This document shows, one piece after another, positions 17,027-62,485 of a DNA stretch of 64,000 bases (positions are counted from its first letter, which is position 1; each line of letters opens with the position of its first letter). The DNA is taken from assembly GCA_016184225.1 (NCBI GenBank), contig JACPDA010000004.1, positions 409,671 to 473,670 of the forward strand. The letters run 5' to 3'. The position numbers were made by a program, and so were the translations under genes. The notes under the pieces are model-generated. The model was not told where the DNA came from. It ran no database searches and was given only the letters and a program-made list of their open reading frames with translations. Source of the stretch: Candidatus Daviesbacteria bacterium. Lineage in GTDB: Bacteria; Patescibacteriota; Microgenomatia; Daviesbacterales; UBA10151.

Positions 17027-18274
17027 ATGTCAGCCAGTCAAAAGGAAGTTTTTCAGCTAGAGGTTTGCAGGGCGTGTGACAGCGATAATCTTTTATTATT
17101 TCTTCAGTTAGGACCAACACCTGTACCTAATGGTTTTTTAAAGGCTCACCACCGCCATCGTGCAGAAAAATTTTATCCTTTGGATGTTTGTTTTTGTAAA
17201 GACTGCGGATTAGTCCAGCTGGCTCATGTTGTATCTCCAAAAGTTATGTTTAAAAATTATGTGTATATTCCTTCAACATCTGAAACTATGAGAACACACT
17301 TTGCTGATTTAGCAAAACAAGCTGTTAAGAAAACAGGTGCAAAAGAAGGGGATTTAGTTTTAGATATCGGCAGTAACGACGGAACCCTTCTTAAGTCGTT
17401 TAGCTCGTTTAAGATGAAAATACTGGGTGTTGATCCTGCAGAAAATCTTGCCAAGAAGGCAAATCAGGAGGGAGTAAAAACAGTATGCGGTTTATTTACT
17501 CTTGATCTGGCTAAGAAAATCAGAAAAGATGAGGGAGAAGCCAGGATTATTACCGGTACTAATGTGGTAGCCCACGTACATGACTTGAATGATTTCCTTG
17601 AGGGTATCAAAGTATTACTTTCAGATGAAGGGTTATTTATCTGCGAATTCCCATACTTAATCGATCTGATTGAGAAGATTGAATTTGATACTATTTATCA
17701 GGAACATCTGTCATATTTTTCAATTACTCCCCTTGAGAAACTCCTGAAAAAACACAAGTTATTCTTGCTGGATGTTCAAAGAATTCCGGTTCATGGGGGT
17801 TCTGTCCGGGTATTTGTTGGCAGAAAGCCCTTAAAGTCAAGCAAACAGGTTAAAAAATTATTGCAACTCGAGAGAAAGAAAGGGATATTAAAGCCCGAGA
17901 CATATCTCAAGTTCAGAAGAAAGGTTGATAAAGTAAGACATGAATTGGTTCAACTTCTCTGGAGTTTGCGGCTGAAAAAGAAACAGATAGTCGGGTATGG
18001 CGCATCTGCAAAAGGAAATATTATTTTAAATTATTGCAGGATTGGGCCAGAAACACTGGATTGTATTGTCGACTCCATTCCTTATAAACAAGGTAAATTT
18101 ACTCCGGGAATGCATATTCCGATTTTTCCCGAAGAGAAGTTATTAAAAGATCAACCTGATTATACTTTGCTTTTGGCTTGGAATTTTGCGGATGAGATAA
18201 TAAAGAAACAATCAGAATACCGTAAACGGGGAGGTAAATTTATACTTGCCCTGCCTAAGCTGACAATTGTGTAG
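17027..18274 (+). CDS. NDP-hexose C-methyltransferase (TylCIII-like): N-terminal zinc-ribbon, class I SAM methyltransferase core, C-terminal C-methyltransferase domain.
   Basis: CxxC...CxxC (CRACDSD...CFCKDCG), LVLDIGSNDGTLL SAM-binding motif, FDTIYQEHLSYFS. Paralogous to the gene at 47753..49033. Confidence 0.65.
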   Translation: MSASQKEVFQLEVCRACDSDNLLLFLQLGPTPVPNGFLKAHHRHRAEKFYPLDVCFCKDCGLVQLAHVVSPKVMFKNYVYIPSTSETMRTHFADLAKQAVKKTGAKEGDLVLDIGSNDGTLLKSFSSFKMKILGVDPAENLAKKANQEGVKTVCGLFTLDLAKKIRKDEGEARIITGTNVVAHVHDLNDFLEGIKVLLSDEGLFICEFPYLIDLIEKIEFDTIYQEHLSYFSITPLEKLLKKHKLFLLDVQRIPVHGGSVRVFVGRKPLKSSKQVKKLLQLERKKGILKPETYLKFRRKVDKVRHELVQLLWSLRLKKKQIVGYGASAKGNIILNYCRIGPETLDCIVDSIPYKQGKFTPGMHIPIFPEEKLLKDQPDYTLLLAWNFADEIIKKQSEYRKRGGKFILALPKLTIV

Positions 18275-19148
18275 CCAAATCTTCTATTATTTCCTCCCAG
18301 CTTCTGAATTTCATCCCTAACTTTTTTTCAGTTTGTTCAACTTTTAATCCGCCGAATTGAGGATATCTTGACTGGTTATCTTTCAGAAACGGTTCGATAC
18401 TGACAGGTTTGACGACATCCTTTTTGCCCCTGGCTCTTTCTATCAGTAGATTTGCTAATTTATGTGGTGTAAAGAGATTAGAACTGGAAGCATGAAAAAT
18501 TCCGATTGGTCTTTTATGCAACATAACTTCTAAAGTTTCTGTTACTTCATTAATATAAGTCAATGTTAAATATTGGTCGTTAAACATTGGATAGAGTTTG
18601 CCACTGTCATATAAGGTTAGGATCTTTCTCACATAATCAGATTTTAATTCATAATTGCTTCTTACCGGATTAGAAATTCGTAAGATGGCAAAGTTTTTGA
18701 TATTATTTATAATCTGTCTTTCAGCTTCCCTTTTTGTCCATCCATACCACGATAACAGATCAGGATTTTCTTCCGGAGTTTCATCTTCTGAGTAAGGTCC
18801 CGGATTTTCTTTACTGCCGGAGAAAATGACATCCGTAGAGATTGCAATGAAAAAAGTATCAGGATTTAGGGATCGGATCAAATTAGTTGTTCCTTCTACA
18901 TTTACTATCCAGCACGGTGCATTTTTATTATTTCGCTGTTCCTCAGCTTTAGATACGTCAGTAAAAGCTGCAAAATGAATAACAGTATCCGGATCATGCA
19001 TTTTAAAGAAATCCTTTACGGATTTTAGGTTTGTAATATCCAGTTCGTCTTGGGAAGGAGATAAAATAACAATGTTCTTGCTTGATTGATAATTTTCAAC
19101 AAAGTGTGATCCTACTAATCCATTGCTACCGGTAACAAGTATCTTCAT
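18255..19148 (-). CDS. RmlD-like NAD(P)-dependent sugar reductase/epimerase (dTDP-4-dehydrorhamnose reductase family).
   Basis: MKILVTGSNGLVGSH, DPDTVIHFAAFTDV, ISTDVIFSG and YGWTK (YxxxK) follow the RmlD substrate-binding-domain pattern. Confidence 0.6.
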   Translation of the reverse strand: MKILVTGSNGLVGSHFVENYQSSKNIVILSPSQDELDITNLKSVKDFFKMHDPDTVIHFAAFTDVSKAEEQRNNKNAPCWIVNVEGTTNLIRSLNPDTFFIAISTDVIFSGSKENPGPYSEDETPEENPDLLSWYGWTKREAERQIINNIKNFAILRISNPVRSNYELKSDYVRKILTLYDSGKLYPMFNDQYLTLTYINEVTETLEVMLHKRPIGIFHASSSNLFTPHKLANLLIERARGKKDVVKPVSIEPFLKDNQSRYPQFGGLKVEQTEKKLGMKFRSWEEIIEDLATQLSA

Positions 19149-19894
19149 ATATTTTGTAATGGCTTTTTAAAGAGTTCTGTTACAAATCCCATTCTAGCCA
19201 GAATGTAAAACAGCAATATCTTGAATGTGCCCAATGAGTATTTTATACTATTTTTTAAACTGGCCCCCCTTTTGTTACCGGTGTAACTAGTTTCTACAGG
19301 AACTTGGGATACCTTAATTCCGTGATAAACGGCTTGTGCAATTAATTCAAAACTAAATAAATAGTTATTGGAATTTACTTCATAATTGATTTTTTTCAGC
19401 ATTTTCTTAGTATATACTCGGAAGCCCTGATGGAAATCATCTAAATCAACTCTTAGTATTATTTTATCAATAAAGTTTAAGGTTCTGATAGGAATCCATT
19501 TCCAAAAATACATCCCGCTTCGGAGGGGATTATCTAAGGAGGTGAAACGGTTACCCAGAACAAACTCTGATCCAGCTTTAATTTCTTTTAGCGCCTGTGG
19601 GATAGCCGATGTTTTATATTCTCCATCAGGATGAATGTCAATGATTATTTCTGCCCCACTTTCAATAGCCAAATTCAAGGCTCTTTTCATATTTCCTCCA
19701 TAACCTAAGTTAAGAGGGTTTTTATACGAAGTAATCTTTATTTTTTTTGCAAGCTCAAATGTATTATCTTTTGATGCATCATCAACCAAAATGATCTCAT
19801 CTACAAGTTTTTTGGGAAAATTTTTGTAAAATTTTTCCAGAGTTTTAGCTGCATTATAAGCTATAAATACGGCGACTATCTTTCTCTTTTTCAT
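19145..19894 (-). CDS. GT2 glycosyltransferase (DPM1-like).
   Basis: IVAVFIAYNAAKTLE...IILVDDASKDNT...IIDIHPDGE. The listed ORF runs to 20008, but the internal ATG (MKKRKIVAVF) at 19894 removes the head-to-head overlap with the divergent gene at 19917. Confidence 0.7.
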   Translation of the reverse strand: MKKRKIVAVFIAYNAAKTLEKFYKNFPKKLVDEIILVDDASKDNTFELAKKIKITSYKNPLNLGYGGNMKRALNLAIESGAEIIIDIHPDGEYKTSAIPQALKEIKAGSEFVLGNRFTSLDNPLRSGMYFWKWIPIRTLNFIDKIILRVDLDDFHQGFRVYTKKMLKKINYEVNSNNYLFSFELIAQAVYHGIKVSQVPVETSYTGNKRGASLKNSIKYSLGTFKILLFYILARMGFVTELFKKPLQNI

Positions 19895-19916: not shown

Positions 19917-21737
19917 ATGACTAACTTAAAGACTCTTTTGATCTTTTTATTGACCGCTGTCCTGATTATATTTTTGGGATTCGATTTTCTGAAACCGGCA
20001 TTTGACATAGGTCTTACACCGGAAGATCGGGAATTTATTTTGCGTTACAAATTAATTGGTCAAAACCCTCTTACTAAGATATTGCAGTTTTGGTCAGAAC
20101 GCGGCGCTTATACCACTATTCCGATCTATTATATTGGAATAGTGCAAAGCATAGCAGGTTTTAACTATCAACTTATTCAGTTTATTGGTATGGTGCTTAG
20201 AGTTCTTGCTGCTTTATCAATTTTTCCTTTAACAAACCTTCTTTTTAAAAATATGCCACTCGCCTTTCTTGCAACAATCATATTCGCCTTTAGCTACACA
20301 ACTACAGGGGCGCTGGAAACAGGCGTTGAACCCAGTGAATATTTGGGTCTCTTTGTAATGAATATATTTTTAATTGCTTATTATTTTCTCAATACCAAAT
20401 ATTTTTTAAATATTTGGTGGTTACTTTTAACATCTCTTCTACTATTTGTTGCCGTAATGGCATCAATAATGAGGGTATATCCCATTTTATTTTTTATACC
20501 TATGGTTGAGATTTTTTTACTATTTTCAAACCGCAAGAAATACAAATTTAAGTACCTATTTTACAAACTTTTTATTTTCTATTTGCCTTTTTTTCTTCTT
20601 GTTCGTTTTTCACCTTCTGCAACCTCAGGTCATTTTTCGCTTCCCACAATTTTATTAAAAATCGCTCAGGGTAATTGGCATTTGTTACTAATCCCTTTTC
20701 AGGGATTAGGTTTTATGATACCGGTATATATGGCGTTTTTATTGGGAGGTCCATTGATTATATTTGGTTTAATGAGTTTAATGTTGTCTCTTGTTTGTAC
20801 TACACAGAAACTGCCCTTTTTTCTTAGGGTATTACTTTTGAATTTTGGCCTTGAAACATTAGCATACTGGATAATACAACGAAGATTATTGTCGCCTGTG
20901 GAGCTAAGGATGAATTTTGATGCCGCACATCTCTACCCGATTTTATTCGGCTTATTCATTTTTTCTCTTATGATAAATTCTTTGATTGATTGGTATAGAA
21001 GTGGTAAAAAGAATAATCTACTTTTTATACTGTGGATGGGACCTTTCATAGGATTATTTTTTATAACTATGACCTACATCTTCGCTGGTATAAATCTTTC
21101 TTTCGGAGGTGCACAAGATCATTATCTTCTGATACCAACAATAGGGATAAGTCTTTTTATAAGCGGGATATTGCTGGCAATGTATGAAAGATTGTCGGTT
21201 ACGCGATTTAAATCTATCGGGGGTTTTGCAGTTGTGGTAATTATACTTGCGTTCCTTTATGGGCTCAATAGAGAAAAGACTCACAGCTACTTCACGGGTG
21301 CAAATTATAACGGAAGAGCAGCAGCGGGTCAGGAATTTCTTCAGGGTAAGATAAGAGAAATATTTAGGAATTTGGATTATTCTAAACCAGTATTAGTTTA
21401 TTTTGATACTTCTGATATACCTGATGGAAAGGGCCCTTTTTATTCCGAAGGACTACTAACACCATTTCCAGTTTTGATGTATTTTAGAGGAGAGAATATA
21501 GTTAATGGTTGCATTGGAGTTATTTATGAGAATAGAAAAATGAAGAAGTTGAAAAAAGCTATTAAAATAATTGGTAATCAGCAGGCCATAGTTTATCAGA
21601 CTACATGTGTTGAAAATGGGAAAATAAATATTCAGGATGTTATTTATAAGGCCGATAATTTCTATGCATTGAAAATTAAAGATGAAAATCTTATTAATAT
21701 TAAGGATCAGGTAATTAAGGAATTAAAATTTAGATGA
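19917..21737 (+). CDS. Member 1 of a six-gene paralogous family of polytopic membrane proteins. Putative novel GT-C-like glycosyltransferase.
   Basis: TM1, then DIGLTPEDREF...ERGAYTT loop, about 12 TM helices, then a soluble C-terminal domain with VYFDTSD...GC(I/V)GVIYE...FYALKIKD..LINIKD. See the family finding. Confidence 0.55.
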   Translation: MTNLKTLLIFLLTAVLIIFLGFDFLKPAFDIGLTPEDREFILRYKLIGQNPLTKILQFWSERGAYTTIPIYYIGIVQSIAGFNYQLIQFIGMVLRVLAALSIFPLTNLLFKNMPLAFLATIIFAFSYTTTGALETGVEPSEYLGLFVMNIFLIAYYFLNTKYFLNIWWLLLTSLLLFVAVMASIMRVYPILFFIPMVEIFLLFSNRKKYKFKYLFYKLFIFYLPFFLLVRFSPSATSGHFSLPTILLKIAQGNWHLLLIPFQGLGFMIPVYMAFLLGGPLIIFGLMSLMLSLVCTTQKLPFFLRVLLLNFGLETLAYWIIQRRLLSPVELRMNFDAAHLYPILFGLFIFSLMINSLIDWYRSGKKNNLLFILWMGPFIGLFFITMTYIFAGINLSFGGAQDHYLLIPTIGISLFISGILLAMYERLSVTRFKSIGGFAVVVIILAFLYGLNREKTHSYFTGANYNGRAAAGQEFLQGKIREIFRNLDYSKPVLVYFDTSDIPDGKGPFYSEGLLTPFPVLMYFRGENIVNGCIGVIYENRKMKKLKKAIKIIGNQQAIVYQTTCVENGKINIQDVIYKADNFYALKIKDENLINIKDQVIKELKFR

Positions 21738-23623
21738 ACATGTTAATTAAGATTATTTCTGGACCATTCTCGATTATGATAATGATATTATTAGTTGCGT
21801 CACTCCAATATTTCCTGCTTTATGATTCGCTAACTTTGGGTTTTAAACCCGATGATTGGATATTATATTTCAATTATAAATTACTGGGAAGTGACCCATT
21901 GTCTAAAATTTCGTATGTCTGGTCCCAAAGGGGTTTGTATACTACATACCAGGTTTATTATATGGGATTACTAGATAGTTTATTTGGCCTGAATTATTAT
22001 ATCTTTCATTTAAGCAGTTTGATCTTAAAGATTATTGCAATTCTAGGGTTATATCCTTTAATCAGAATATTTTTTAAGAGTAGATTATTGGCTTATTTGG
22101 TAGTTTTCTTGTTTTCTATTAGTCATTCTGCAGTGGGTCCGTTAGAGTTTGTAGTCAAAGGCAGCGATTATCTTGCAATAATTTGGATGGAGGCATTTTT
22201 ATTAGCATATTATTGGATACAAAACAATAAATTCTTGAGTTGGAGGTATTACTTCATATTGCCGATATTTTTTATTCTTGCATTTTCTTTTTCACCGATT
22301 AGAATGTTTCCTCTCCTTGCGATACCGTTTCTAACAGAAGTTTTTTTGATTCTGAGAAATTTTCATCCGATTACCATTAGAAAATCACTGGTTAAACTCT
22401 CAATCATCTATTCGCCATTTATTATCGCCTTTATACTAATGAAACCTGCTTCTTTGTTAGCTGATGCGTATGGACCAAATGGAATATTGAAAAAGGTTTT
22501 AGATGGTAATTGGTATTTATTGCTAGCACCGTTCTCAGGAATGGGTTACTCATTTATTACAAATGATTATTGGAGAGAAATATTCGGTTTGATCATGGCG
22601 GACAATCTCAAAAATTACCTGAATTTTCTTTTAGGTGGACCGACGGTTATCTGTGGTATGCTAACCACTTTTGTTGTATGGTCGCAAATTCAAAGGCACA
22701 AAATCCTTTTTATTGTTTCCACAATGTTATTGAATTTCTTATTTCAAATCCTGATTTATTTCGTAGCATTTCATCACCGCAAACTGCCTTTTCTACAAGT
22801 AAATTATGATCCAGTCAATTTATACTCTATCATCTTTGGCGGATATATAATCATAATTGGATTCATGATTTTTTTAAACTGGTTAAAGAGTAAGGAAAAA
22901 GATAGGCTTTCAATGGCGTTCTGGATGGGTTCAGCTTTTCTTTTTGTCTTTACTTATTTAACATGGGCTTTTGCGCCTTTAGGCACAGGCTTTAGAGATA
23001 CGAGTTATTACTTAGTCGTGGGATCAATGGGATCATCGCTTATGATAGGAGCCTTTTTGGTTTCGTTCTACAATAAATTAAAGTCCATGACTGGCAGACT
23101 GGGATTTTTAGCATTTGTTGTTTTTTTGATTCTCATTCCGATTTTCAAGATGAGTGGTCAGGAAATCCTTCAAAGTTATTCTTCGTTAAATAGAGACGGA
23201 CGTGGTGCAAATGGGCAAATTGTGATGCAAAAAGAAGCCAGAAGAATGTTGGCTGATTTTAAAGCAGGAGATTATATTCTAGTTTATTTTGATACGTCTG
23301 ACATTACTGGTTTAGGACCATTTTATTCTGAAGGTTTTCTGACGAGTTTTCCTTTTTTTATGCTCCTCCAGAATGGAAAGGTGATTGATGGTTGCATTGG
23401 AGTTATCTACGAAGATAATAGAATGGTGCAACTTATTAAATCGATTCAAATTCAAAATGGAATAACAGGATTCAGTTTTCCTGCTTCATGTGTAGATAAT
23501 GGGAGAATTCGTTCAAAGGATTTATTCTTTACTTTTGATCATTTCTATGCCTTTAGAATTAAGGATAAGAAATTAATTAATATTAAAGAGGAAGTACTTA
23601 AAGACCTGAGGTTTTATAATTAA
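21734..23623 (+). CDS. Member 2 of the family, tandem paralog of the preceding gene. Putative novel GT-C-like glycosyltransferase.
   Basis: GFKPDDW loop motif after TM1. C-terminal VYFDTSDITGLGPFYSEGFLTSFP...GCIGVIYED...FYAFRIKDKKLINIKEE nearly identical in pattern to member 1. ATGA overlap with the upstream gene. Confidence 0.55.
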   Translation: MNMLIKIISGPFSIMIMILLVASLQYFLLYDSLTLGFKPDDWILYFNYKLLGSDPLSKISYVWSQRGLYTTYQVYYMGLLDSLFGLNYYIFHLSSLILKIIAILGLYPLIRIFFKSRLLAYLVVFLFSISHSAVGPLEFVVKGSDYLAIIWMEAFLLAYYWIQNNKFLSWRYYFILPIFFILAFSFSPIRMFPLLAIPFLTEVFLILRNFHPITIRKSLVKLSIIYSPFIIAFILMKPASLLADAYGPNGILKKVLDGNWYLLLAPFSGMGYSFITNDYWREIFGLIMADNLKNYLNFLLGGPTVICGMLTTFVVWSQIQRHKILFIVSTMLLNFLFQILIYFVAFHHRKLPFLQVNYDPVNLYSIIFGGYIIIIGFMIFLNWLKSKEKDRLSMAFWMGSAFLFVFTYLTWAFAPLGTGFRDTSYYLVVGSMGSSLMIGAFLVSFYNKLKSMTGRLGFLAFVVFLILIPIFKMSGQEILQSYSSLNRDGRGANGQIVMQKEARRMLADFKAGDYILVYFDTSDITGLGPFYSEGFLTSFPFFMLLQNGKVIDGCIGVIYEDNRMVQLIKSIQIQNGITGFSFPASCVDNGRIRSKDLFFTFDHFYAFRIKDKKLINIKEEVLKDLRFYN

Positions 23624-25337
23624 TCCTTATTTGTTCAAGCTGCTTTCTTGCCTCATTGGTGACGTTTACCATATTATCTTTCCCCTGCAAATAAAAGGCA
23701 TAAACTCTATCAGTGGGTACTGGTTTTACCGGGTAGCCATAGGCTGGTAAAGCTTTTCCATCTGTGACTGCAGAAATAACCTGATTAAAATTATCCATTG
23801 GAACAGGAATACCCCCATCTTCCTCCCTTATATTATAAAGTATTGCCATACGGGGTGGAAATCCAAAGGTAATAACATCGTGTAAAATCCCTCCGTTGGT
23901 GCCGTCCCCTTCAAAGTAGAAAATAATCGGCTCTTTACTTTTGCCAATCTCCGGGATATGCGGAATTTTATCCCAAACTTTACTGAAAGTTTCCTGGCTG
24001 TGAGAATTTAGCAAAGTATTTATATAAAGACGGCTAGAGGCGATATGAATAATTAGAAAAAGACAAAAGAAGACGAAGAGGGTTACCTGGTGTTTTTTTT
24101 CTTTGCCTAAGCTAATTAAGGCTGCAAAAAGTATGGTAACCCCTATGGCTGAGACTATTAAATAACGGTAAGTGGTGGGGAAGATTGATGTTGGTGCCCA
24201 CCACCAGGCAAAAAAGAAGGAGAGGATAGCCCAGAAGGCTCCTAAAAATAGAGCTTGAGAGCGCAGGAAGCTTATCAGAATAAGGGTGTATCCTCCAATC
24301 AAAAGTGAAAAAATCTGATTTGTGTTATTGAAAGAGTTTTGGTTACCTCTATAGATTAAAATAACCGAAACTCCCCACAACCCTAAAGCAATTAATAGGT
24401 TAATAAAAAATTTAGAGTTGAACTTACCTGCATTTTTGATGATAAAAAAGGCAATAACGGAAAAGATGAGCGTTGTCAATATAAGCATAGGAAGCAGTTG
24501 TCTGATTGCATTAATTTGTCCCTGCGGCCCTATTAAATCAGGAATCAACATACTTCCAAACATCACAACAGGGTAAAAGATAAAATCAAATCTGCCCTGT
24601 GCAAGCATTTGCATATCTTGTGTTAATCCGATCAGGAATCTCTCCATAGGTTCTTGGGGCGGGCCTTGGGATTGTCCGGTAAACCTGATAACTAAAAAGA
24701 TAAATACAATGATTGAAAATCTTAACGCAGCCACTTTTACAACTTTTAGACTTCTTTTTTGAAAAACCCAAAAAAGTTCCAGAAGGAAAATGAAAGGCAA
24801 AGAACCATGCATTCTGATGGGAGTTGTAATATAAGCAAGATAATAAAGCACACCGGCCACTATCAAAATAGGAAGCCTTTTATCCTCTCTTGCTTTAAGA
24901 AAGAAGAAAAGAAACAGATTAAACAGGGCAATGGTAATATAGGTAGGCATATTAAAGACCCAGTTTGTTGCATCAAATCCTATTACTGTAATTGAGAAAA
25001 AAATTACTGCGAAAAAAGAGGCAATCTTGCTTTTGGTGAGATAAAAAACCAAAGGATAAAATGAGAAAGCAGCAACGATTCTGAATGTATAAGAAGTTAA
25101 ATAATACCACGTTGATTCAAAACCAACAGTTTTTTGCATAACTCCCATTAAAATATCCTGGGCGCCATATGGTGTTAAATAGTAAGTTAGATGATTCCAT
25201 GCACCCGGAGATTTTGGTCCCAAATGTTGAAAGTATCTAAAAAAAGCCAGCCAATCGTCTCCAAACAGATTTAAAGAAAAAGTTTGGTAAATGGTAAATA
25301 AGCTAATCGAGATGACAGCAATAAAGAAAATCAGCAT
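23598..25337 (-). CDS. Family member 3 (subfamily Y). Putative novel GT-C-like glycosyltransferase.
   Basis: NLFGDDWLAFFRYFQHLGP after TM1, about 13 TM helices, C-terminal IIFYFEGDGTN...VTFGFPP.MAILY...VYAFYLQGKDNMVNVT. Confidence 0.55.
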   Translation of the reverse strand: MLIFFIAVISISLFTIYQTFSLNLFGDDWLAFFRYFQHLGPKSPGAWNHLTYYLTPYGAQDILMGVMQKTVGFESTWYYLTSYTFRIVAAFSFYPLVFYLTKSKIASFFAVIFFSITVIGFDATNWVFNMPTYITIALFNLFLFFFLKAREDKRLPILIVAGVLYYLAYITTPIRMHGSLPFIFLLELFWVFQKRSLKVVKVAALRFSIIVFIFLVIRFTGQSQGPPQEPMERFLIGLTQDMQMLAQGRFDFIFYPVVMFGSMLIPDLIGPQGQINAIRQLLPMLILTTLIFSVIAFFIIKNAGKFNSKFFINLLIALGLWGVSVILIYRGNQNSFNNTNQIFSLLIGGYTLILISFLRSQALFLGAFWAILSFFFAWWWAPTSIFPTTYRYLIVSAIGVTILFAALISLGKEKKHQVTLFVFFCLFLIIHIASSRLYINTLLNSHSQETFSKVWDKIPHIPEIGKSKEPIIFYFEGDGTNGGILHDVITFGFPPRMAILYNIREEDGGIPVPMDNFNQVISAVTDGKALPAYGYPVKPVPTDRVYAFYLQGKDNMVNVTNEARKQLEQIRINYKTSGL

Positions 25338-25357
25338 GTTTAGATAATACTTGAGAT

Positions 25358-27145
25358 TTAAGGGTTAGACAATAGCTCTTGCAATTTTTGCCGGGTCTGC
25401 CCAGTAATATTAACTAAGTTATCTTTTCCTAAAAGCTGGAAAGCGTACACGCTTTCAATGCTAATTGGTTTGTCTTTGCCAATGGATTTTCCGTCTGAAA
25501 CTGCGGAGACAACTTCTTTCCAGTCGCTCATTGGTTGAGGAATCCTTTCCTCCTCAGAAATTTTATAAAGTATGGCCATATGGGGTGGAAAGCCGAAAGT
25601 TACAGAGTTGCGTAAGATGGGTTCATTAGTGTCATCCTCCTGGAAATAAAAAATAAGAGGTTCAGAGGTTTTACCTACTTGGGGAATATACGGCATTTGG
25701 GACCAGATTTTCTTTGTGGTCTCTTTGTTACGGGTAGTATATTCGACCGCCAAAAAAAGTTTTATATAGGAAGCATGACTTATTTGCAAAATTACCGCAA
25801 TGAACAATAAGATCAGCATACTTTGACGGTTTTTACCAAGACTGATAATTTTTGCCAGCAGCAGCGAGATGCCGACTCCGGAAATTATCAGATAACGGTG
25901 AGAAGTTGGGAATATTGCTGATGTGTTAGCTTGCCACCAGGGGTAAAGATTTGAAATTATTGTCCAGCCTAAAGCGATTAACAAACCGCCTTTTAGAGGG
26001 GTTTCTGCTTTAAGGTAAAGAAACAGATTTAAAACTAATATTAAAAGATAACCACCGATTAAAAGCGCCGATGCATTATTAGCATTAGCAAGAACAAGAG
26101 GGTTAATTTTTAACAGGATTAAGGATAAAATAGCCCAAATAGTCCCAAGTAAGATACCGGTGTAAAAGGACTTAGTTTTTAAATTGCTGATGGTGTGTTT
26201 TGCAACAAACAATATAACTATATAGAAAAAAAAGATCGGCAAAAATATTCTAAAAAGATATTGGCCGGCATTTTCTATCCGCCACCCCTGCGGTTGAAAA
26301 GCATCGGGAACAACAATATTTCCTAAAGTTGCAATGGGATAAAACAAGAAGTCAAAATTACCCGAGGATATAAGTTGGAAACTATGTTTAAGGCCTATTA
26401 AAAGACCGCTAGCAGGGCTTCCGCTAATAGTTTCTTTGAAACCAAGCAAATAGATCAAAAAATAGACAACAAAAAAACCTGAAATCTTTAGTCCAGAATC
26501 AATGAAGTTCCATCTTTTTGTAAAAAGGGCCATTAGTATTTCAAAAAAGATTAGGAAGGGGATAAGACCATGGGCCCTGATAGGAGTTGCCAAAAAAGTT
26601 AATGCAAAGAAAAGATAAATTAACAAAAGAGTCTTTATTTTCTTTCCAAAATTCAGAAATTGTTCGCTGTTTTGGAAATATTTTAAAGAAAAAAACAGCA
26701 TGAAACTAAAGAAGATAATGGAGATATAAGAGGGCATGTTAAATACCCAGCTTGAGGCGCTTATCCCGACTGAGGAAAATAAGAAAAAGAAAACGGCAAA
26801 CCATGCTGCCCGCTTACTTTTTGTTAGAAGGGAAGCCGGAAAGTATAAGGAGAGGGCAGCGATTACTCTTAGCGTATAAGATAATAGAAAATAAATATTG
26901 GAATCACTGCCAAAGGCTTTATAAAGAAAGGCCATAATAGTATCTTGGGATCCATAAGCATTAAGGAGGTATTTAAAGATATTAAAATATTCCGTTGAGT
27001 AAGGCCCCAAATGTTTGGGCGCATCTAAATAATATGAATATCTGAATATGGCAAGCCAATCATCTCCAAAAAGTCCCAAGTTAAAAAAAGGCATAAAGAC
27101 CCAGAGGTTAAGCAGTAATAGTAGAATAGAAATTAGCAGAAACAT
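25358..27145 (-). CDS. Family member 4 (subfamily Y). Putative novel GT-C-like glycosyltransferase.
   Basis: LGLFGDDWLAIFRY after TM1. C-terminal LIFYFQEDDTNE...VTFGFPPHMAILY...VYAFQLLGKDNLVNIT. Closest paralog of 23598..25337. Confidence 0.55.
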   Translation of the reverse strand: MFLLISILLLLLNLWVFMPFFNLGLFGDDWLAIFRYSYYLDAPKHLGPYSTEYFNIFKYLLNAYGSQDTIMAFLYKAFGSDSNIYFLLSYTLRVIAALSLYFPASLLTKSKRAAWFAVFFFLFSSVGISASSWVFNMPSYISIIFFSFMLFFSLKYFQNSEQFLNFGKKIKTLLLIYLFFALTFLATPIRAHGLIPFLIFFEILMALFTKRWNFIDSGLKISGFFVVYFLIYLLGFKETISGSPASGLLIGLKHSFQLISSGNFDFLFYPIATLGNIVVPDAFQPQGWRIENAGQYLFRIFLPIFFFYIVILFVAKHTISNLKTKSFYTGILLGTIWAILSLILLKINPLVLANANNASALLIGGYLLILVLNLFLYLKAETPLKGGLLIALGWTIISNLYPWWQANTSAIFPTSHRYLIISGVGISLLLAKIISLGKNRQSMLILLFIAVILQISHASYIKLFLAVEYTTRNKETTKKIWSQMPYIPQVGKTSEPLIFYFQEDDTNEPILRNSVTFGFPPHMAILYKISEEERIPQPMSDWKEVVSAVSDGKSIGKDKPISIESVYAFQLLGKDNLVNITGQTRQKLQELLSNP

Positions 27146-27154
27146 TTTTAATTT

Positions 27155-28303
27155 TTATACACCGCTAAGTGTCTTAACAGTTTTTACCCATATTCGCATC
27201 GAGTATGCAAGGTGGTGAAAATACCCGCGCGTTGCGGCATTCCAAATAAAACTGTCAAATTTTTGAACAGCATCCTCCATCTGTGATGCCAGACTTAAGT
27301 AGCTTTCCGCGTATGATGATCCCTCCAGTTTAACTTCTGTGAGCCAGTTTAGAATATCTTCCAGGACAATTACACACATAAATTCGTAATTTAAATCCTT
27401 TATCGCGTTATGAGTATTTCTTATGTGGTTTATAATAGGGGATCCGACACGAATATTAAACCCTAAGTGCTTTACGCATGCCTGAGCAAAAAAACCGCTG
27501 AAAATATCGCCGTACCTATCAATAGATAAACCTGATATCGGATACCCCATTTTTACAAACCAGTATGAAGGAATTACTGCTCGGTTTAAGCTGGTATTTT
27601 GGGTATTTATCGGCGTCCAAGTTTTGTTTGCAAGTACTAACGATTTCTTTTTGAAAGAAATAGCATTAGGTTTAACACCAAGCCAGGTAATAGCATCTAC
27701 ATCAGGAGCTTTTAACCACAGACCGGCATTCATATGGATTTCAACATCAGAGTTTTTTTGAGTGTACTTCTCTTGTTTAAATCTGGCAAAGTATGGAAAA
27801 CCTCTCGCGTAAACAACTCCGGGATTTGAAAAATTCAGCAAGCTGCATATATTAAACCAACCATTGCTATCTTGAATAGTGACACTTTTATGCTTCCCTC
27901 TTCCAACCACCTCATGTTCTTTAAAAAAGTCTTTGCCTTTAATGGGAAAGTTATCATCATCTATTGAAATGATTACCTCATCTCCAAGCTCGTATGCCAT
28001 TAGATAACCAACGTTTCTTCTGCTGTCTGAATTATAAGGGACAGTGTTGAATATAGGACCCAGTTTTCTTAGGTATTCATCCTGATCATCTAAAGTGGGA
28101 CAAAGTATATTAAATCCCCTTCTTTTAATGTCTTTGCATTTTTGATAAAGCTCTTTAGGAGTTTTTCTGTCAGGAATAATAATAAGCCTTGTTTGGTCCT
28201 CCACTTTTTCCTCGGTCATTTTTTGGACGTAAGTTTCTAGAAAATTACCTTCGTAGATAGAAGTTGCAACGACTGAGAATTTAGTTTTTCTATCTTTTTT
28301 CAT
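27155..28303 (-). CDS. RGP/GT75-family protein (reversibly glycosylated polypeptide / UDP-L-arabinopyranose mutase homolog).
   Basis: Colinear blocks match plant RGP/UAM as I recall it: LGP.........[22 protein letters not shown] against [47 protein letters not shown] against [29 protein letters not shown] against [35 protein letters not shown] against RYDDMWAGWCVKVICDHLG. Confidence 0.6.
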   Translation of the reverse strand: [382 protein letters not shown]

Positions 28304-28983
28304 GCTATTAATTCCTGGTAAAACAACTTTAACTGGTCCAGGCCTGTTTTAAGTGAGGGAAATGTGCTTTTCCCATAGACCCTTTTTCCTTCTTTAGTCG
28401 GGAATTCCGTTATTTTAACACCGGTCTTTAATGCCCTGATTATCTGTTGATAGTCTGATGCATTCGGGGGCGGGATTTTTATCCTTAATTTTTCATAAGC
28501 CTTCCGTGCGAAAGCGCGGTAACCCTGCGTAGGATCTGTGCATTTGTTGCCTCCTCTTCCCCATACAATAGTTGCGATAAGTCCCATTCCCTGACAAAAC
28601 CACTTACGCGGCTTCAAGAGCTGGTCATCCTCTTCATTATATCCATCTTTTCCCATTCTTCCGGCAATGATGAATTCAAACCCCTCTTTAAGCAGCTTAA
28701 CAAATTTTTTAAGATCATAAGGTTCCATATTTCCGTCCGGGTGAAAAAATATTAAGGTATCTTCTTTTGTGTTTCTCCAGGCAGATTCGTATGCTCCGCC
28801 CACCCCTTTATATTTTTGCGGGAAGACCTCTATACCTTTACTTTTCCAAAATTCCTGAGTTCCGTCTGAAGAATTTGCATCAATGACATATATCTTATCC
28901 ACTAAATTTTTAGGGATCCTGCCGAATATTTTTTCCGAATTTCTCCGCTCGTTCTTGGTAAAGATTATCAGTGCAATTTTCAT
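28300..28983 (-). CDS. GT2 glycosyltransferase (DPM1-like, short form).
   Basis: MKIALIIFTKNE...VIDANSSDGT...FFHPDGN GT2 motifs. ATGA overlap with the RGP-like gene. Confidence 0.75.
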   Translation of the reverse strand: MKIALIIFTKNERRNSEKIFGRIPKNLVDKIYVIDANSSDGTQEFWKSKGIEVFPQKYKGVGGAYESAWRNTKEDTLIFFHPDGNMEPYDLKKFVKLLKEGFEFIIAGRMGKDGYNEEDDQLLKPRKWFCQGMGLIATIVWGRGGNKCTDPTQGYRAFARKAYEKLRIKIPPPNASDYQQIIRALKTGVKITEFPTKEGKRVYGKSTFPSLKTGLDQLKLFYQELIA

Positions 28984-28991
28984 TCCATGAT

Positions 28992-29675
28992 TTATTGTTT
29001 TTTACTAAGAACCGCAAGACCATTATAGACAAGAAAAATTGAAAGAGAGTACTCCGGATGTGCATGTACAAAATCATTGCAAGCTTTCTGGATATGAGGA
29101 ATCCATTTAAGATCATCAACAATTATATGACTGGCATCCAATTTTGCCATTCCAATAAGGTCATTCATACATGCTTCGTATGAGTGATCTCCGTCAACAA
29201 CTCCTAATATGGTTTTACCATAGTATTTTTTCTTAATTGCATTACTGCGGTCTTCAAAAAACTTATCGCTTTTTTCCACTACAAACTCGAATCTGTTTTT
29301 GCCGTACAGTTTTTCTAAATATGCTATGCCTTGTTTCCAGTTGCCATAAGGAAAGGCGTCCACGGAAATTAATTTTCCGCTTTTCACTTTTGGCCACTCT
29401 GATTTAACGTAGGATAGAAACTTCGTGTCTCCACTCAAAATCCCTTCTTCAACTCTTTCTCCATCCATCAAAAAACCGTCTGTGAGAGCTTCGAGCAAAA
29501 ACAGCGCTGATTTTCCCCAAAGATGTCCTATCTGGATTATTAAACCTGGTTTATAGAACTTGACTAAAGAGTAAATCAGAAAAGCCACTTCATCAATTAC
29601 CCATCCGGTCCTGTCAGAAGCTTTTGTAATACTTTTAAGTTTTGCTAGATGCTTTTTGAATTGTAATATATTCAT
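28992..29675 (-). CDS. Putative class I SAM-dependent methyltransferase (TylF/CmcI-like, Methyltransf_24 type).
   Basis: GLIIQIGHLWGKSALFLLEAL (Rossmann-like) and ILGVVDGDHSYEA, reminiscent of the VDGDHSYE motif of macrocin/cephalosporin O-methyltransferase-like proteins. Confidence 0.45.
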   Translation of the reverse strand: MNILQFKKHLAKLKSITKASDRTGWVIDEVAFLIYSLVKFYKPGLIIQIGHLWGKSALFLLEALTDGFLMDGERVEEGILSGDTKFLSYVKSEWPKVKSGKLISVDAFPYGNWKQGIAYLEKLYGKNRFEFVVEKSDKFFEDRSNAIKKKYYGKTILGVVDGDHSYEACMNDLIGMAKLDASHIIVDDLKWIPHIQKACNDFVHAHPEYSLSIFLVYNGLAVLSKKQ

Positions 29676-29693
29676 TCGTGGTATTTTCCAATT

Positions 29694-29711
29694 CTCCGGC
29701 TAAAGCCGGAG
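29694..29711. promoter_or_regulatory. Perfect 7-bp inverted repeat CTCCGGC-TAAA-GCCGGAG in the divergent promoter region between 28992..29675 (-) and 29806..31695 (+).
   Basis: Read directly. It is GC-rich against an AT-rich background and lies 19 nt upstream of the minus-strand start codon. Confidence 0.35.
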
Positions 29712-29805
29712 TCACTATAAAGATTATCATACAAACCCTTAGAGTCAAGCTTTAATATTGATATCATTCTCGCATCCATGTTATTCTTTTTAAGAGAGAG
29801 CCGAC

Positions 29806-31695
29806 ATGAATAAAGTAGTTAACAAAAGATCTTTGTGGATATTTTTATTGTGTGCCGTAGTTGTGGTTTTGACCCAATTTTCAATTTTACGGCCGATTAT
29901 AGATTTTTCGCTATTTACAGAAGATGATTGGAATTGGCTTTTTTATTTTAGATCTTTGCCGGATCTCAATTTTTTGCAAAAATTATTTTTAACATGGACA
30001 AAAATTGGCATACATGAAGGCGGATATGCAATTTATATAGGCATATTGGGGATACTTTTCGGAAATCATTATTCCCTATATCAATATGTAAATATAGCTT
30101 TCAAAATAATCGCGACCCTCACCCTTTTCCCTTTAATTTTAATCCTTTTTAGAAACAGACTGCTGGCGTTGCTGACTACTGTAATCTACGGGATAAATTC
30201 AGCATCAACAGGTTCCTTTTATTGGTTTATGAAAGGTGGTATTTTCCCAGCGATAGCACTTATGAATTTATTTTTCATTACCTATTACTATACCATGATA
30301 AAAAAAACAAAAATTTTGTTAATGGTATCTTCAGTTTTGATAATTCTGTCTTATTTAAATTCCCCCACCAGAATATTTCCACTCTTTTTTATAATTTTCG
30401 GCGTTGAAACTTATTGGATAATTAAATATAAATCACCAACTACGGTTAAAAATTCTATCATCAGGCTTGTGTGTTTTTTACTGCCTTCAATATTAATTGC
30501 TATGATAGCGCCTGTATCCCCCAATGGAAGGGTTGTTGAAACGCCGGGCGTTTTGCTAAGTCAAATTCTGGCAGGAAATTGGTTTAATCTTCTTTCTCCG
30601 TTTGCAGGTATTGGATATTCTCTTTTGACTGTTGAGAATATGAGAATTTTTGGATTTATGGATTTTTCTACTTTTGCCAGTCTAAATAATTATTTATCCT
30701 ATCTTGCGAAAGGAAGCGTTTGGATTTTTCTATTATCTTTATTTTTTCTTTCACTCTTAATACCGAGAAAGCCTTTACGGTTTATTATCACAGCTTTTTG
30801 TATAAACTTTGTTTTGGATATCCTGATGTATTTTATAGCAAGCCACCACTTGACTATTGCCCCGGGGTTAGTTCAACAAATGGACCCATCCTTATTTTTT
30901 CTAACTAAGTATCCAACCCTGGTGGCGATTTTTATTCTGGTGGTGGCTTTGATGGCATTTTGGGAATGGTTAAAAGGAAAAAAAGATTACTTGTTGGTGG
31001 CGATAACCATTGGGCCGGTATTTTCATTAATATTTCTTTCTTTAATGTGGGTAACCATAGCTTATTTGCTGGACGGATATAACAGTATCCATTATTATTT
31101 TCAGATACCGGCAATTGGTATTTCACTTTTCTTTGCTGCTGTTTTGGTTTTATTTTATAAAAAGTTTAAGAAAAAGTATGCACGGATGTTAGTAGCAGTA
31201 ATGATTACCGGGATTATTATTGGTTTTTATCGATCGAGCAGTTTTGCAATTAACCGCGAGTTTTTAGGAATTTATCCCGAGAACGTAAGGATAAAAGACC
31301 AACAAATTTTACATGGTAAATTAATAAAGAAAATGGGGGAATTTAATAGAGCAGGTAATATTTTGGTATATTTTGAGCTTCCAAAAGATAATTTAAGCTT
31401 TAAATATTATAAGCGTGCGCTACTTTTGGATTCTATATCATTTGCCACGATGATAAAATGGCAGGTTAAAGGGGATGGATCGGGGTGTATAGGGAGCGTT
31501 AACGATATCAATATTTTAATTTCATCCTATCAACTTAAGGATGGTAAAGAGGGTTTTATAACCAGCGGTAGATGCAGGCAAGTAACAGAAAAGAATGTTT
31601 TTTACAACTTAGACGATCTTTATGCATATAAAGTGGAAAAAGGTGAATTTATAGATATTAAAGATAATTTATTAAAGGAATTAAAACTTCCGTGA
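29806..31695 (+). CDS. Family member 5 (subfamily X). Putative novel GT-C-like glycosyltransferase.
   Basis: IDFSLFTEDDWNWLFYF after TM1, about 13 TM helices, C-terminal ILVYFELPKDN...GSGCIGSVNDI...LYAYKVEKGEFIDIKDNLLKELK. Confidence 0.55.
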   Translation: MNKVVNKRSLWIFLLCAVVVVLTQFSILRPIIDFSLFTEDDWNWLFYFRSLPDLNFLQKLFLTWTKIGIHEGGYAIYIGILGILFGNHYSLYQYVNIAFKIIATLTLFPLILILFRNRLLALLTTVIYGINSASTGSFYWFMKGGIFPAIALMNLFFITYYYTMIKKTKILLMVSSVLIILSYLNSPTRIFPLFFIIFGVETYWIIKYKSPTTVKNSIIRLVCFLLPSILIAMIAPVSPNGRVVETPGVLLSQILAGNWFNLLSPFAGIGYSLLTVENMRIFGFMDFSTFASLNNYLSYLAKGSVWIFLLSLFFLSLLIPRKPLRFIITAFCINFVLDILMYFIASHHLTIAPGLVQQMDPSLFFLTKYPTLVAIFILVVALMAFWEWLKGKKDYLLVAITIGPVFSLIFLSLMWVTIAYLLDGYNSIHYYFQIPAIGISLFFAAVLVLFYKKFKKKYARMLVAVMITGIIIGFYRSSSFAINREFLGIYPENVRIKDQQILHGKLIKKMGEFNRAGNILVYFELPKDNLSFKYYKRALLLDSISFATMIKWQVKGDGSGCIGSVNDINILISSYQLKDGKEGFITSGRCRQVTEKNVFYNLDDLYAYKVEKGEFIDIKDNLLKELKLP

Positions 31696-32525
31696 ATGAA
31701 TCCAAGCTTGTATCTGTAATTATAACCACAAAGAATGAAGAGGCAGCCATTGGGCGGCTTATTGAATCAATAAAGAAACAAACCTACAAGAATTTGGAAG
31801 TTATTATGGTGGATAATTTTTCCGAAGATAAAACTGCAGAGATCGGAAAAAAATCAGGGATAAAGGTTTATTCCTTCGGTCCGGAAAGAAGCAGCCAGCG
31901 GAATTTTGGAGCAAAACATGCAACAGGTGATTACCTGCTTTTTGTAGATGCCGATATGGAACTTTGCCCGGCGGTATTACAGGAGTGTGTTGAAGTTTGT
32001 AAAAAGGGGAGGCAAGTTGGAGCAGTAATTATTCCAGAAAGGTCAATAGGTAACACATTTTGGGAAAAAGTTAAGGCATTTGAGCGGTCTTTTTATAATC
32101 TGGAAGGGGATAGCTTTACGGATGCAGCCAGATTTTTTACAAAAGAGGCATTTAATGCGACCGGGGGATATGATGAAAGGATTACGGGTCCTGAGGACTG
32201 GGATTTGCCTGAAAGCGTTAAAAACTTGGGGTTTAAAATCGGCAGGATAGTTTCAGTCATTTATCATTATGAAAGAATTAGTTCACCTTTAGCTTTGGCA
32301 CGTAAAAAATTTTATTACGCGCTTAAATCACACCGGTATTTAAATAAACAAAAAATTTCCGTATTCAGTCCGAAAACGATATATTTTTTAAGACCGGTGT
32401 TCTATAAACATTACGATAAAATCCTTTCCCATCCGGTTTTATCTTTAGGGATGATTATTATGTTGTTTCTGGAACTGGCCGGTGGCGGACTAGGTTATAT
32501 AACAGGAAGGATTAAGAAGTTTTGA
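31692..32525 (+). CDS. GT2 glycosyltransferase.
   Basis: LVSVIITTKNEE...VIMVDNFSEDKT...LLFVDADME. ATGA overlap with the upstream family member. Confidence 0.75.
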   Translation: MNESKLVSVIITTKNEEAAIGRLIESIKKQTYKNLEVIMVDNFSEDKTAEIGKKSGIKVYSFGPERSSQRNFGAKHATGDYLLFVDADMELCPAVLQECVEVCKKGRQVGAVIIPERSIGNTFWEKVKAFERSFYNLEGDSFTDAARFFTKEAFNATGGYDERITGPEDWDLPESVKNLGFKIGRIVSVIYHYERISSPLALARKKFYYALKSHRYLNKQKISVFSPKTIYFLRPVFYKHYDKILSHPVLSLGMIIMLFLELAGGGLGYITGRIKKF

Positions 32526-60586: not shown

Positions 60587-62485
60587 ATGTATAAAATATT
60601 ACAAAACCGGTTTTTCTATCTTTCCTGTTTCCTGATAATACTTGTAGTGATAAGTCAATACACTCAATTGCAGTTGGCTATCGAAAGAGGTTATCCGGGA
60701 GATGATTGGGGGAATTGGTTGACGTTCAAATTTATCAGCGGTTCTTTCATTGATAAGATTATCCAAAATTGGCTAATTGCCGGGCCTCAGTTTCAAAGCT
60801 TCGGACTTTATCCGGGAATAATGGAGGCAATATTTAGGGAGAAGCATTACCTGATTAATATTGCGAGCATTGTCCTTAAAACTCTGGCCACTATTTCCAT
60901 ATTTCCGACCATTTATATAATTTCTAAAAATAAATTACTGGCTTTTTTAACAACTATTCTCTATGCCATCAGTCATTCTTCGGCCGGCGGGTTAGCCATT
61001 ATGGTAAATGGAGGTGAATACCTGGGGATTTTTTTGATGAATTTATCTTTAATTTTTTACTACCTTTCCGTTAAAAAATTTCATTTTTTTAATTTTCTTC
61101 CTGCCGTCCTGGCTTTATTTCTGGCTTTTGTGATAGCCCCAAACAGAGTTTATCCGATTTCATTTATTCTGGTTCTGGTGGAGATATTCTTAATTTTCAG
61201 AAGAAAAACCAGGTTAATGTTTTCATTGCTCAGAATATTTACAGTGATTAGTCCGGTAGTATTAATAGTTTTATTTTCCCCAAAACATATTAATTATGGT
61301 CTTCAAGTAAAAGGCGACACTTTGCAACTTATCCTGAACGGAAACTGGCATCTTCTTTTAACCAACACTTTATCAGGAATAGGTTATATGATGGTTAATT
61401 CGGAATTTATTAAACAGGCAAATATAAGTTTATCGGTTTTTGAAAGCCTCGGTTCGTATATGAGTTTTCTTGTAAGTAAGATATTTTGGTTTCTTATGTT
61501 AACATCCGCTGTCTTGTCCGTTTTTCTGTCCAAGAAACCTGTCAGATTCTTTATCACGGTTTTAGGTATAAACTTAATATTTGATGTTTTAAATTATTTC
61601 ATTTCCTCACATTTTTTATTTCTTCCCTCAAATTTAAGGTTGGAGCCGGATCAATACTTTTTCACAGCTCAAGTTGTCTTACCAATTGCTTTTTTTGCAA
61701 TTTCGCTGGCAATAGGTCTGTTGTTGGAATATATTCTGGAAAAAGAAAAGAAAACTATTTTATTATTACCCTTTTTTTCTTTGGCATTTTCAATAATATT
61801 TCTTTATTCGCCTTGGGTAATAGCCGGAAGATACTATACTCTTTGGCCGGTGCACCGTTATTTGACTGTGCCTCAACTTGGGGTTAGTTTATTCTTAGCC
61901 TCGCTGCTTGTAATTGCTTTTGGCAGAATATCCAGGCAACTTAGATTGTACTTTATTTTATTTATTATTCCCGCTCTTCTATTTTTTAATTATTTCCAGA
62001 GTAAACAGGAGATAGATAGTTTCTTTTATCAATACATAATTTCAGGTGGGAATATCACGGCTGAGGCAGTGGTGCAAAGGAAATTGCTAGACAAAATTCC
62101 CAAGTCAAAACTGAGAGAGAATGTAGCAATTTATATCTCCCCAGAGGCTAATTCCCCCCAGTCGCAATATTGGCTGACAGCCTTGAGTCTAGTTAATGTA
62201 GAACACTGGCTATCATTAAGAAAATCCTATCTTTATGACACAAAACAGCTGGATGGCTGTATAGTGGCCGTTTATGATATAAAGTTTCTGGAAGAAAAAG
62301 CCTTACTTAAAGATAAAACAGGTTTTGTAATGAGGGGGAAGTGTTTTGATCAGAAAGAAAAGCCGATCTTAATTGATAAAGAGGAGGTTTTCTTTCCGGT
62401 AGATAATTTTTATGCATTTAAAATGAAGGAAACAGAGCTTACTGATATTAGAGATGATATTTTACGGCAACTGCGGATGAACTGA
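60587..62485 (+). CDS. Family member 6 (subfamily X). Putative novel GT-C-like glycosyltransferase.
   Basis: ERGYPGDDWGNWLTFKF after TM1, about 13 TM helices, C-terminal IYISPEANS...DGCIVAVYD...FYAFKMKETELTDIRDDILRQLRM. Confidence 0.55.
   Translation: MYKILQNRFFYLSCFLIILVVISQYTQLQLAIERGYPGDDWGNWLTFKFISGSFIDKIIQNWLIAGPQFQSFGLYPGIMEAIFREKHYLINIASIVLKTLATISIFPTIYIISKNKLLAFLTTILYAISHSSAGGLAIMVNGGEYLGIFLMNLSLIFYYLSVKKFHFFNFLPAVLALFLAFVIAPNRVYPISFILVLVEIFLIFRRKTRLMFSLLRIFTVISPVVLIVLFSPKHINYGLQVKGDTLQLILNGNWHLLLTNTLSGIGYMMVNSEFIKQANISLSVFESLGSYMSFLVSKIFWFLMLTSAVLSVFLSKKPVRFFITVLGINLIFDVLNYFISSHFLFLPSNLRLEPDQYFFTAQVVLPIAFFAISLAIGLLLEYILEKEKKTILLLPFFSLAFSIIFLYSPWVIAGRYYTLWPVHRYLTVPQLGVSLFLASLLVIAFGRISRQLRLYFILFIIPALLFFNYFQSKQEIDSFFYQYIISGGNITAEAVVQRKLLDKIPKSKLRENVAIYISPEANSPQSQYWLTALSLVNVEHWLSLRKSYLYDTKQLDGCIVAVYDIKFLEEKALLKDKTGFVMRGKCFDQKEKPILIDKEEVFFPVDNFYAFKMKETELTDIRDDILRQLRMN

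Follow-up and report, generated by a model that had tools for sequence, protein, structure and literature searches.

What do six large membrane proteins encoded on one stretch of Candidatus Daviesbacteria DNA do, and what substrate would they use? The stretch, hereafter the window, comprises 64,000 nucleotides (assembly GCA_016184225.1, contig JACPDA010000004.1, positions 409,671 to 473,670; all coordinates below are those of the window), and a reading of its letters alone, here called the original prediction, had singled out the six proteins as a paralogous family and a candidate undescribed family of GT-C glycosyltransferases (GTs). GT-C enzymes are hard to recognise by sequence, and new families in the CAZy classification, GT136 for example, rest on single characterised members. 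We followed up the prediction by alignment, structural modelling, profile searches and comparison of gene neighbourhoods. We consider it quite likely that the six proteins belong to a new GT-C family that works at the outer face of the membrane with polyprenyl-phosphate sugars as donors, is organised in cassettes of donor synthase and GT-C protein, and has expanded locally into subtypes. Judged from sequence and model, the family appears to be of the GT-C_A-like kind, with 13 transmembrane (TM) helices; it is unannotated and has so far been found in Candidatus Daviesbacteria and related Patescibacteria.

The six open reading frames (ORFs) code, in coordinate order, for proteins of 606, 629, 579, 595, 629 and 632 amino acids. 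On the plus strand lie paralogs A (19917..21737) and B (21734..23623), which form a tandem pair with A first, paralog C (29806..31695), the divergent partner of an operon with methyltransferase, GT2 and mutase genes, and paralog D (60587..62485), downstream of a GT4 gene and a generic GT2 gene. On the minus strand lie Y2 (25358..27145) and Y1 (23598..25337), the latter being the last gene of that operon. A full-length alignment of all six proteins (MAFFT) gave pairwise identities of 25-34% within the four X-type proteins (A to D), 39% between Y1 and Y2, and 17-22% between X and Y types. Since the family hidden Markov model (HMM) scores the six with E values from 1e-158 to 1e-186 (1.3e-169 for paralog A), their paralogy is beyond doubt. 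An acidic motif directly follows the first hydrophobic helix in every one of them (TPEDREF in A, KPDDW in B, GDDWLAF in Y1, GDDWLAI in Y2, EDDWNW in C and GDDWGNW in D), and D41, R190, E202 and Y426 are invariant across the six (residue numbers throughout are those of paralog B, the 21734 protein). Toward the C-terminus, a GC[IV]G block and a second Cys occur in the X-type proteins only and an FGFPP block in the Y-type proteins, while a YAF block is present in all six. The ORF list, the alignment, hydropathy and the model described below thus bear out what the original prediction had claimed about the coordinates and common architecture of the six (TM1, a loop, about 12 further TM helices and a soluble C-terminal domain), the split into an X subgroup of four and a Y subgroup of two with two tandem pairs, the acidic loop motifs and the C-terminal blocks.

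Comparison of a structural model with known GT-C structures had been put forward as a check on the proposed fold. We modelled paralog B with AlphaFold2 from a 51-sequence alignment (pLDDT 92.1, pTM 0.92) and searched the PDB with the model using Foldseek. Ranks 1-17 were occupied exclusively by GT-C proteins, namely PglB, ArnT, STT3, AglB, AftA, DPY19 and Pmt4 (probability 0.99-1.00), and the next matches were major facilitator superfamily transporters with a probability <0.3. The topology derived from the model helices together with hydropathy has 13 TM helices: TM1, an external loop of ~60 amino acids with juxtamembrane helices, and 12 more TM helices, with a long external loop at residues 236-291 and a soluble C-terminal domain of ~125-150 amino acids that is predicted to lie outside. 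Short loops rich in Lys and Arg fall on the alternate, predicted cytoplasmic side, in keeping with a positive-inside pattern. The acidic pair opens a loop helix (residues 39-50) immediately after TM1; in solved GT-C enzymes the proposed catalytic Asp occupies the corresponding place, where the first helix of the external loop begins after TM1 (PMC11127046). The C-terminal alpha/beta domain is an orphan, having no neighbour in the PDB and containing no MIR or TPR domain.

Failure of the acidic loop to be conserved across orthologs had been named in advance as a finding that would speak against a GT-C assignment. The loop-1 motif is kept across a set of 51 diverse homologs, where it takes the form [DE][DE]W at residues 40-42, with D41 conserved in 90% and W42 in 96%. 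R190 and Y426 are each conserved in 100% of this sample, E202 in 98% and K99 in 94%. In the C-terminal domain of X-type proteins, conservation is 92% for C554 and likewise for C586. Such a pair may form an extracytoplasmic disulfide and fits a location of this domain outside the cytoplasm.

To curated models the family is invisible. Scans of the six proteins against Pfam and NCBIfam, with E values up to 1, gave no family assignment; matches to DUF2953, DUF6728 and a sigma factor (E >0.1) were dismissed as noise. None of the six was matched by PF13231 (PMT_2) or PF02366 (PMT), again with E values up to 1. A profile of the six proteins found no GT-C chain and nothing credible among PDB sequences, its matches to ferritin and Gp15 (E >0.1) being spurious. 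These searches also gave no assignment to a characterised family other than glycosyltransferases; it is an assignment of that kind that the original prediction had named as evidence against it. Paralog B, searched against 5.8 billion proteins, found 79 homologs, only one of which carries a Pfam domain, a GT2; the few named homologs are listed as 'hypothetical protein' of Candidatus Daviesbacteria or of 'Patescibacteria group bacterium', and a second profile search of the same set, which uses a word index, mostly returned the same proteins again. When 1.84 billion cluster representatives were searched exhaustively with an HMM, 265 clusters (at 50% identity) reached E ≤ 1e-30 and 497 reached E ≤ 1e-10, followed by a weak tail of 2,737 at E ≤ 1e-3. 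We found no description of the family in the searchable literature on GT-C enzymes in Patescibacteria, glycosyltransferases of Daviesbacteria or S-layer glycosylation in the candidate phyla radiation (CPR).

From where would such proteins obtain an activated sugar? Two homologs, P0077 (870 amino acids) and P0156 (864 amino acids), fall into separate 50%-identity clusters and are independent fusions to a GT2 domain. Both begin with a GT2 domain, after which come one TM helix, a loop of the NGDDWDS type and the rest of the family body, and P0077 is one continuous ORF on its contig. The PDB matches of the fused GT2 domain are exclusively ArnC (2e-12), the Pyrococcus furiosus Dol-P-Man synthase and GtrB. 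With a cytoplasmic GT2 domain and a single TM helix before it, the DDW loop of the fusion proteins would lie outside; this arrangement and the positive-inside pattern together support an extracytoplasmic position of the loop in the family.

The neighbourhood of the six genes points to the same donors. Adjoining paralog A is a minus-strand GT2 gene of the DPMS/PpgS-like type (19145..19894), whose sole PDB match is the Dol-P-Man synthase 5mlz and whose best NCBIfam matches are PpgS, AglJ and a dolichyl-phosphate hexose transferase, all below cutoffs. As listed, this ORF extends to 20008 and shares 92 nucleotides with the beginning of paralog A. Because its Pfam domain begins at residue 47 and its orthologs are 244-249 amino acids long, the true start is probably Met39 (19894), and a start there leaves a 22-bp divergent gap between the GT2 gene and paralog A (19917). 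A second such gene, DPMS/AglJ-like and also on the minus strand (28300..28983, 227 amino acids), has the same P. furiosus synthase, 5mlz, as its sole PDB match, over the full domain, and AglJ and dolichyl-phosphate hexose transferase as best NCBIfam matches, again below cutoffs. A third GT2 of the polyprenyl-phosphate-sugar synthase type lies farther off (13370-14131, minus strand). All four GT2s that flank the family had been expected to be DPM1-like, but the remaining two (31692-32525 and 59610-60548) resemble, in their PDB and NCBIfam matches, GT2s of the ordinary Leloir kind. The statement that several DPM1-like synthases are interleaved with the family therefore holds for two, or three if the more distant gene is counted, and falls for the other two.

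In other genomes the association is conserved. A narrow-alignment search for related loci recovered eight and undersamples the taxonomic range. In loci from other metagenome-assembled genomes (MAGs) of Daviesbacteria and Patescibacteria (L001 and L003-L009), family members stand in arrays of 2-6. Orthologs of paralog A were seen in L005, L006 and L009, and orthologs of Y1 (455-937 bits) in L001, L004, L005, L007, L008 and L009. An ortholog of the GT2 next to paralog A (at least 396 bits) immediately adjoins the array in seven of the loci (L001, L003-L007 and L009); a second DPMS-like copy is found between or after family members in L003, L004 and L006, and a free-standing ortholog of the GT2 domain of P0077 lies beside the array in L008. 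Linkage of a polyprenyl-phosphate GT2 to a GT-C gene, as in Gtr and Arn systems, is seen in seven and in three other loci as well as in the fusions. The proposed tie to polyprenyl-phosphate-sugar synthases turned out stronger than could be known from the letters alone, and we infer from the fusions and the conserved adjacency that the family would use a lipid-phosphate-linked sugar donor.

A further clue to the sugar comes from the operon that is divergent from paralog C. Its gene order is a Methyltransf_24-type methyltransferase (28992..29675, minus strand; assigned by Pfam), the GT2 at 28300..28983, a mutase, Y2 and Y1. The mutase (27155..28303, minus strand), whose first bases overlap the stop codon of the GT2 gene upstream, is an MtdL-like member of GT75, the NDP-hexopyranose-to-furanose mutases (Pfam RGP, 2e-20), and aligns over residues 7-381 with MtdL itself (PDB 7xpr, E 1.5e-97). 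MtdL is a characterised Mn-dependent GDP-L-galactose/GDP-L-fucose pyranose-to-furanose mutase in which roles have been assigned to the catalytic residues (PMC9937993). In alignment, the protein from the window shares with it the DDD Mn-binding motif, the nucleophilic Arg and the residues Asp195, Arg257, Asp260 and His287, so that both full-length homology to MtdL and the UAM proteins and the catalytic residues of a GT75 mutase are present; one base-selectivity residue deviates, with Lys at the position of MtdL Asn42. Since only two bacterial GT75 members have been characterised (PMC9937993), a copy in a surface-glycan locus of a CPR organism is unusual.

Orthologs of the mutase with 67-88% identity were found in three metagenomic loci (L011-L013). 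All three keep the GT2-mutase pair flanked by an ortholog of paralog C (362-827 bits), and two of them, L011 and L012, also have the methyltransferase upstream. We predict the GT2 of this module to be its polyprenyl-phosphate-sugar synthase. The arrangement supports, and does not prove, a scheme in which polyprenyl phosphate is charged from an NDP-L-hexofuranose and then serves, outside the cell, the paralog C type of GT-C and perhaps also the Y pair. The mutase would make a sugar like GDP-L-fucofuranose or L-galactofuranose, the GT2 would load it on polyprenyl phosphate and the GT-C would transfer it outside. That these three components, joined in the window by the methyltransferase and the two Y-type proteins, together constitute an undescribed route for adding L-hexofuranose outside the membrane is an idea we put forward tentatively. 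If true, it would represent a fourth 'three-component' type and the first GT75-derived lipid-phosphate-linked hexofuranose donor, and the C-terminal domain of the family would be a new acceptor-binding fold.

For the family as a whole we envisage the following sequence of events. A cytoplasmic GT2 of the DPMS/ArnC/GtrB type would move a sugar from a nucleotide sugar to polyprenyl phosphate, the product would be flipped across the membrane to its outer face, and a GT-C paralog would there hand on the sugar to an acceptor outside the cytoplasm, which could be a polysaccharide or a protein of the cell surface. The [DE][DE]W pair that opens external loop 1 may serve as catalytic base or metal ligand, the invariant R190, E202 and Y426 and the conserved K99/K115 may bind phosphate and sugar, and the orphan C-terminal domain, on the extracytoplasmic side, may help in recognition of the acceptor. 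Types A, B, C, D, Y1 and Y2 would differ in donor, acceptor or linkage and belong to cassettes with a donor synthase of their own. One putative cassette consists of the GT2 at 19145..19894 divergent from A and B; the other consists of paralog C divergent from the methyltransferase, GT2, GT75 mutase, Y2 and Y1, with a polyprenyl-phosphate-linked L-hexofuranose resembling L-fucofuranose or L-galactofuranose as its predicted donor. Most likely, family members decorate a cell-surface glycan from outside the membrane.

The alternative that survives best is a variant of this scheme and differs from it only in the acceptor. According to it, the six would be protein O-glycosyltransferases of the PMT/TMTC-like kind that act on Ser or Thr of secreted or surface proteins, for example of the S-layer or pili, and the family's only relatives within reach of profiles lie in that direction. 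Proteins with PMT_2 and TPR domains, including one called 'protein O-mannosyl-transferase', come within reach of a broader profile (A3) at E 1.7e-8, and hhalign of the family against one PMT_2+TPR protein gave 96% probability (E 4.5e-9) across TM2-TM5, a similarity that covers ~105 of the family's ~620 residues. These relatives have [WF]DD directly after TM1, and WDE stands in the same place in a tandem pair of canonical PMT_2 (ArnT/PMT-like) proteins encoded on the plus strand of the window (942-2369 and 2366-3958). Hhalign of the family profile against these two was not significant (probability <4%). The remote profile link and the likeness of the motifs, which also speak for our preferred reading, suggest that the family represents a highly divergent branch within the GT-C_A type, nearest PMT_2 and too distant from it for curated models to detect. 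The family is undescribed as far as Pfam, NCBIfam, the PDB and the searchable literature go, as predicted, but it is not isolated from known GT-C families. Against a role in protein O-glycosylation, the six lack MIR or TPR acceptor-binding domains, the C-terminal domain being an orphan; their genes lie within an island of polysaccharide type that also encodes GT4s, enzymes of sugar modification and a Wzx flippase; and the canonical PMT_2 proteins are already encoded apart from them, at 942-3958. We think this alternative rather unlikely.

Less probable still, to the point of being improbable, is use of a polyprenyl-diphosphate-linked oligosaccharide, with en bloc transfer to protein or cell wall by an oligosaccharyltransferase like PglB, AglB or STT3 or by a ligase- or polymerase-like enzyme. 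PglB, STT3 and AglB are among the structural neighbours of the model; the six proteins have neither sequence membership in STT3/PglB/AglB (GT66) nor the characteristic C-terminal acceptor-binding domain of that group, and the linked GT2s resemble synthases of polyprenyl-monophosphate sugars. That the six are inactive proteins with a GT-C fold, serving as scaffold, chaperone or in transport as PIG-U/GAB1 do, would suit the fold equally well but seems very improbable beside the conserved loop motif and synthase linkage.

Several observations weigh against our preferred reading, that of a GT-C family fed by polyprenyl-phosphate sugars. Paralog A has EDR in loop 1 and not DDW. The equivalence of D40/D41 to the catalytic residues of PglB, ArnT and PMT is one of position only. 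The DPMS-like GT2s score well below the NCBIfam equivalog cutoffs, so that polyprenyl phosphate as their acceptor is assigned by family resemblance only. No GtrA-like, ArnE-F-type or other dedicated flippase was identified in the 64-kb window, nor any unassigned small multi-TM ORF. Finally, beyond the paralogy, GT-C fold, conservation of the motif, topology (N-terminus in, loop 1 out), fusion and gene linkage described above, what we propose regarding catalytic activity, donor, acceptor and the roles of individual residues is predicted for every member.

How new is the family in comparison with known systems? In Gtr-type three-component glucosylation of O-antigen (flippase GtrA, und-P-Glc synthase GtrB and a serotype-specific GT-C) and in the analogous ArnC/ArnT and DPM1/PMT systems, a GT2 makes a polyprenyl-phosphate sugar that a polytopic GT-C uses outside the membrane (PMC11127046). 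The family shares with them the predicted donor logic and the genetic linkage of synthase and GT-C, and the GT2 domain of P0077 directly matches ArnC, DPMS and GtrB. As predicted here for the paralogs, several GT-C specificities can share one scheme in the Gtr system. Unlike all three systems, the family is undetected by Gtr, ArnT and PMT sequence models (Pfam, NCBIfam and PDB sequences) and has an orphan C-terminal domain and 3-6 paralogs per locus, some members are fused to a synthase, and no GtrA-like flippase gene is present in the window. The PMT_2/TMTC-like proteins (PF13231; the GT39/GT83/GT105 neighbourhood of CAZy) are the only family that can be reached by a sequence profile. Both have an acidic pair right after TM1 (DD in PMT_2+TPR proteins, WDE in the PMT_2 proteins of the window, DDW in the family), whereas TM count and C-terminal domain differ and TPR and MIR domains are absent from the family.

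A further parallel is the three-component GT136 system, founded on ORF12 of Citrobacter youngae (Kelly et al. 2024), which has a GT-C_A domain, an Asp just after TM1 and a C-terminal extracytoplasmic domain, and which adds pentofuranose after polymerisation from a polyprenyl-phosphate donor (PMC11127046). This furanose addition resembles what we predict for the mutase-linked cassette. The GT136 donor derives from phosphoribosyl pyrophosphate through a UbiA-like PPPRS and is flipped by a MATE protein, whereas here a GT2 synthase and a GT75 NDP-sugar mutase would supply it, and ORF12, as described, has 11 TM helices and an Ig-like carbohydrate-binding module, which sets it apart from a family with 13 TM helices and a non-Ig alpha/beta domain. 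The mycobacterial PpgS (Rv3631)/Rv3779 pair belongs to another organism and envelope, and the PpgS match reached 70 bits against a cutoff of 370. There is no sequence similarity between the family and the Aft/Emb arabinofuranosyltransferases. In fold, position of the catalytic motif, donor logic and gene organisation the proteins thus match an already known kind (Gtr, Arn, PMT and GT136-type). New are a sequence family missed by Pfam, NCBIfam and PDB sequence searches, the orphan C-terminal domain and the association with a GT75 mutase, and, judged from Pfam, NCBIfam, the PDB and literature, the family is a candidate new GT family in CAZy terms.

Once the family is recognised, one of the largest expansions of paralogs in small CPR genomes, with 3-6 copies per locus, would acquire a function. 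The family points to a cell surface that is decorated from outside the membrane in elaborate and diversifying ways. CPR organisms of this kind have never been cultured and are believed to live on hosts, and for that reason the surface is likely to matter for the biology of Daviesbacteria-type organisms. The cassettes and fusions of synthase and GT-C also offer testable donor-enzyme pairs for glycoengineering, and the mutase-linked cassette suggests an unexplored delivery of furanose sugars.

The window as a whole is a glycan-biosynthesis island with nucleotide-sugar enzymes, GT2 and GT4 proteins, a Wzx-like flippase and the PMT_2 proteins. Its sole flippase-like gene codes for a Wzx/MOP protein with a Polysacc_synt domain (6954-8267), and a plus-strand gene next to it codes for a PIG-V-like mannosyltransferase homolog (5794-6957). 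Together with the six paralogs and the two PMT_2 proteins, the latter brings the GT-C-type proteins of the window to at least nine. We also noted three polytopic orphans with no Pfam match. The largest (50875-53631, plus strand; 918 amino acids, at least 9 TM helices) has a GGGDEG motif after TM1 and a weak profile similarity to the family across TM2-TM7 (hhalign 62%, E 7e-5), and it may be another unrecognised GT-C. The second (11083-13404, plus strand; 773 amino acids, ~12 TM helices) and the third (41711-43246, minus strand; 511 amino acids, at least 7 TM helices) had no detectable similarity to the family; hhalign against the family profile was not significant for either (probability <4% for the former). 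Each may be a polymerase, a ligase or a further orphan GT-C of the island. A 60-amino-acid ORF (IYPRIFNKYFGVDVWSRTIEAD; 39641-39823, minus strand) closely resembles the N-terminus of the 511-amino-acid protein (IYPRLLNKYYGLDVWVKMIEAD) and, from this resemblance, is probably the remnant of a truncated paralog.

Among the sugar-modifying enzymes of the window are two sugar C-methyltransferases with Methyltransf_13/14 architecture (17027-18274, plus strand, and 47753-49033, minus strand) and a carbamoyltransferase (39911-41620, plus strand), and aminotransferase, acetyltransferase and dehydratase genes are also present. This set of enzymes suggests that the surface glycan contains heavily modified deoxysugars, C-methylated, carbamoylated and amino sugars among them. 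Four of the loci compared, L004 (CAZVEX01), L005 (CAZWTE01), L009 (CAYNFQ01) and L010 (CAYMUB01), come from binchicken MAGs labelled 'uncultured Gammaproteobacteria bacterium'. All four are syntenic with Daviesbacteria and their orthologs are 61-63% identical, and the label is probably a placeholder or wrong.

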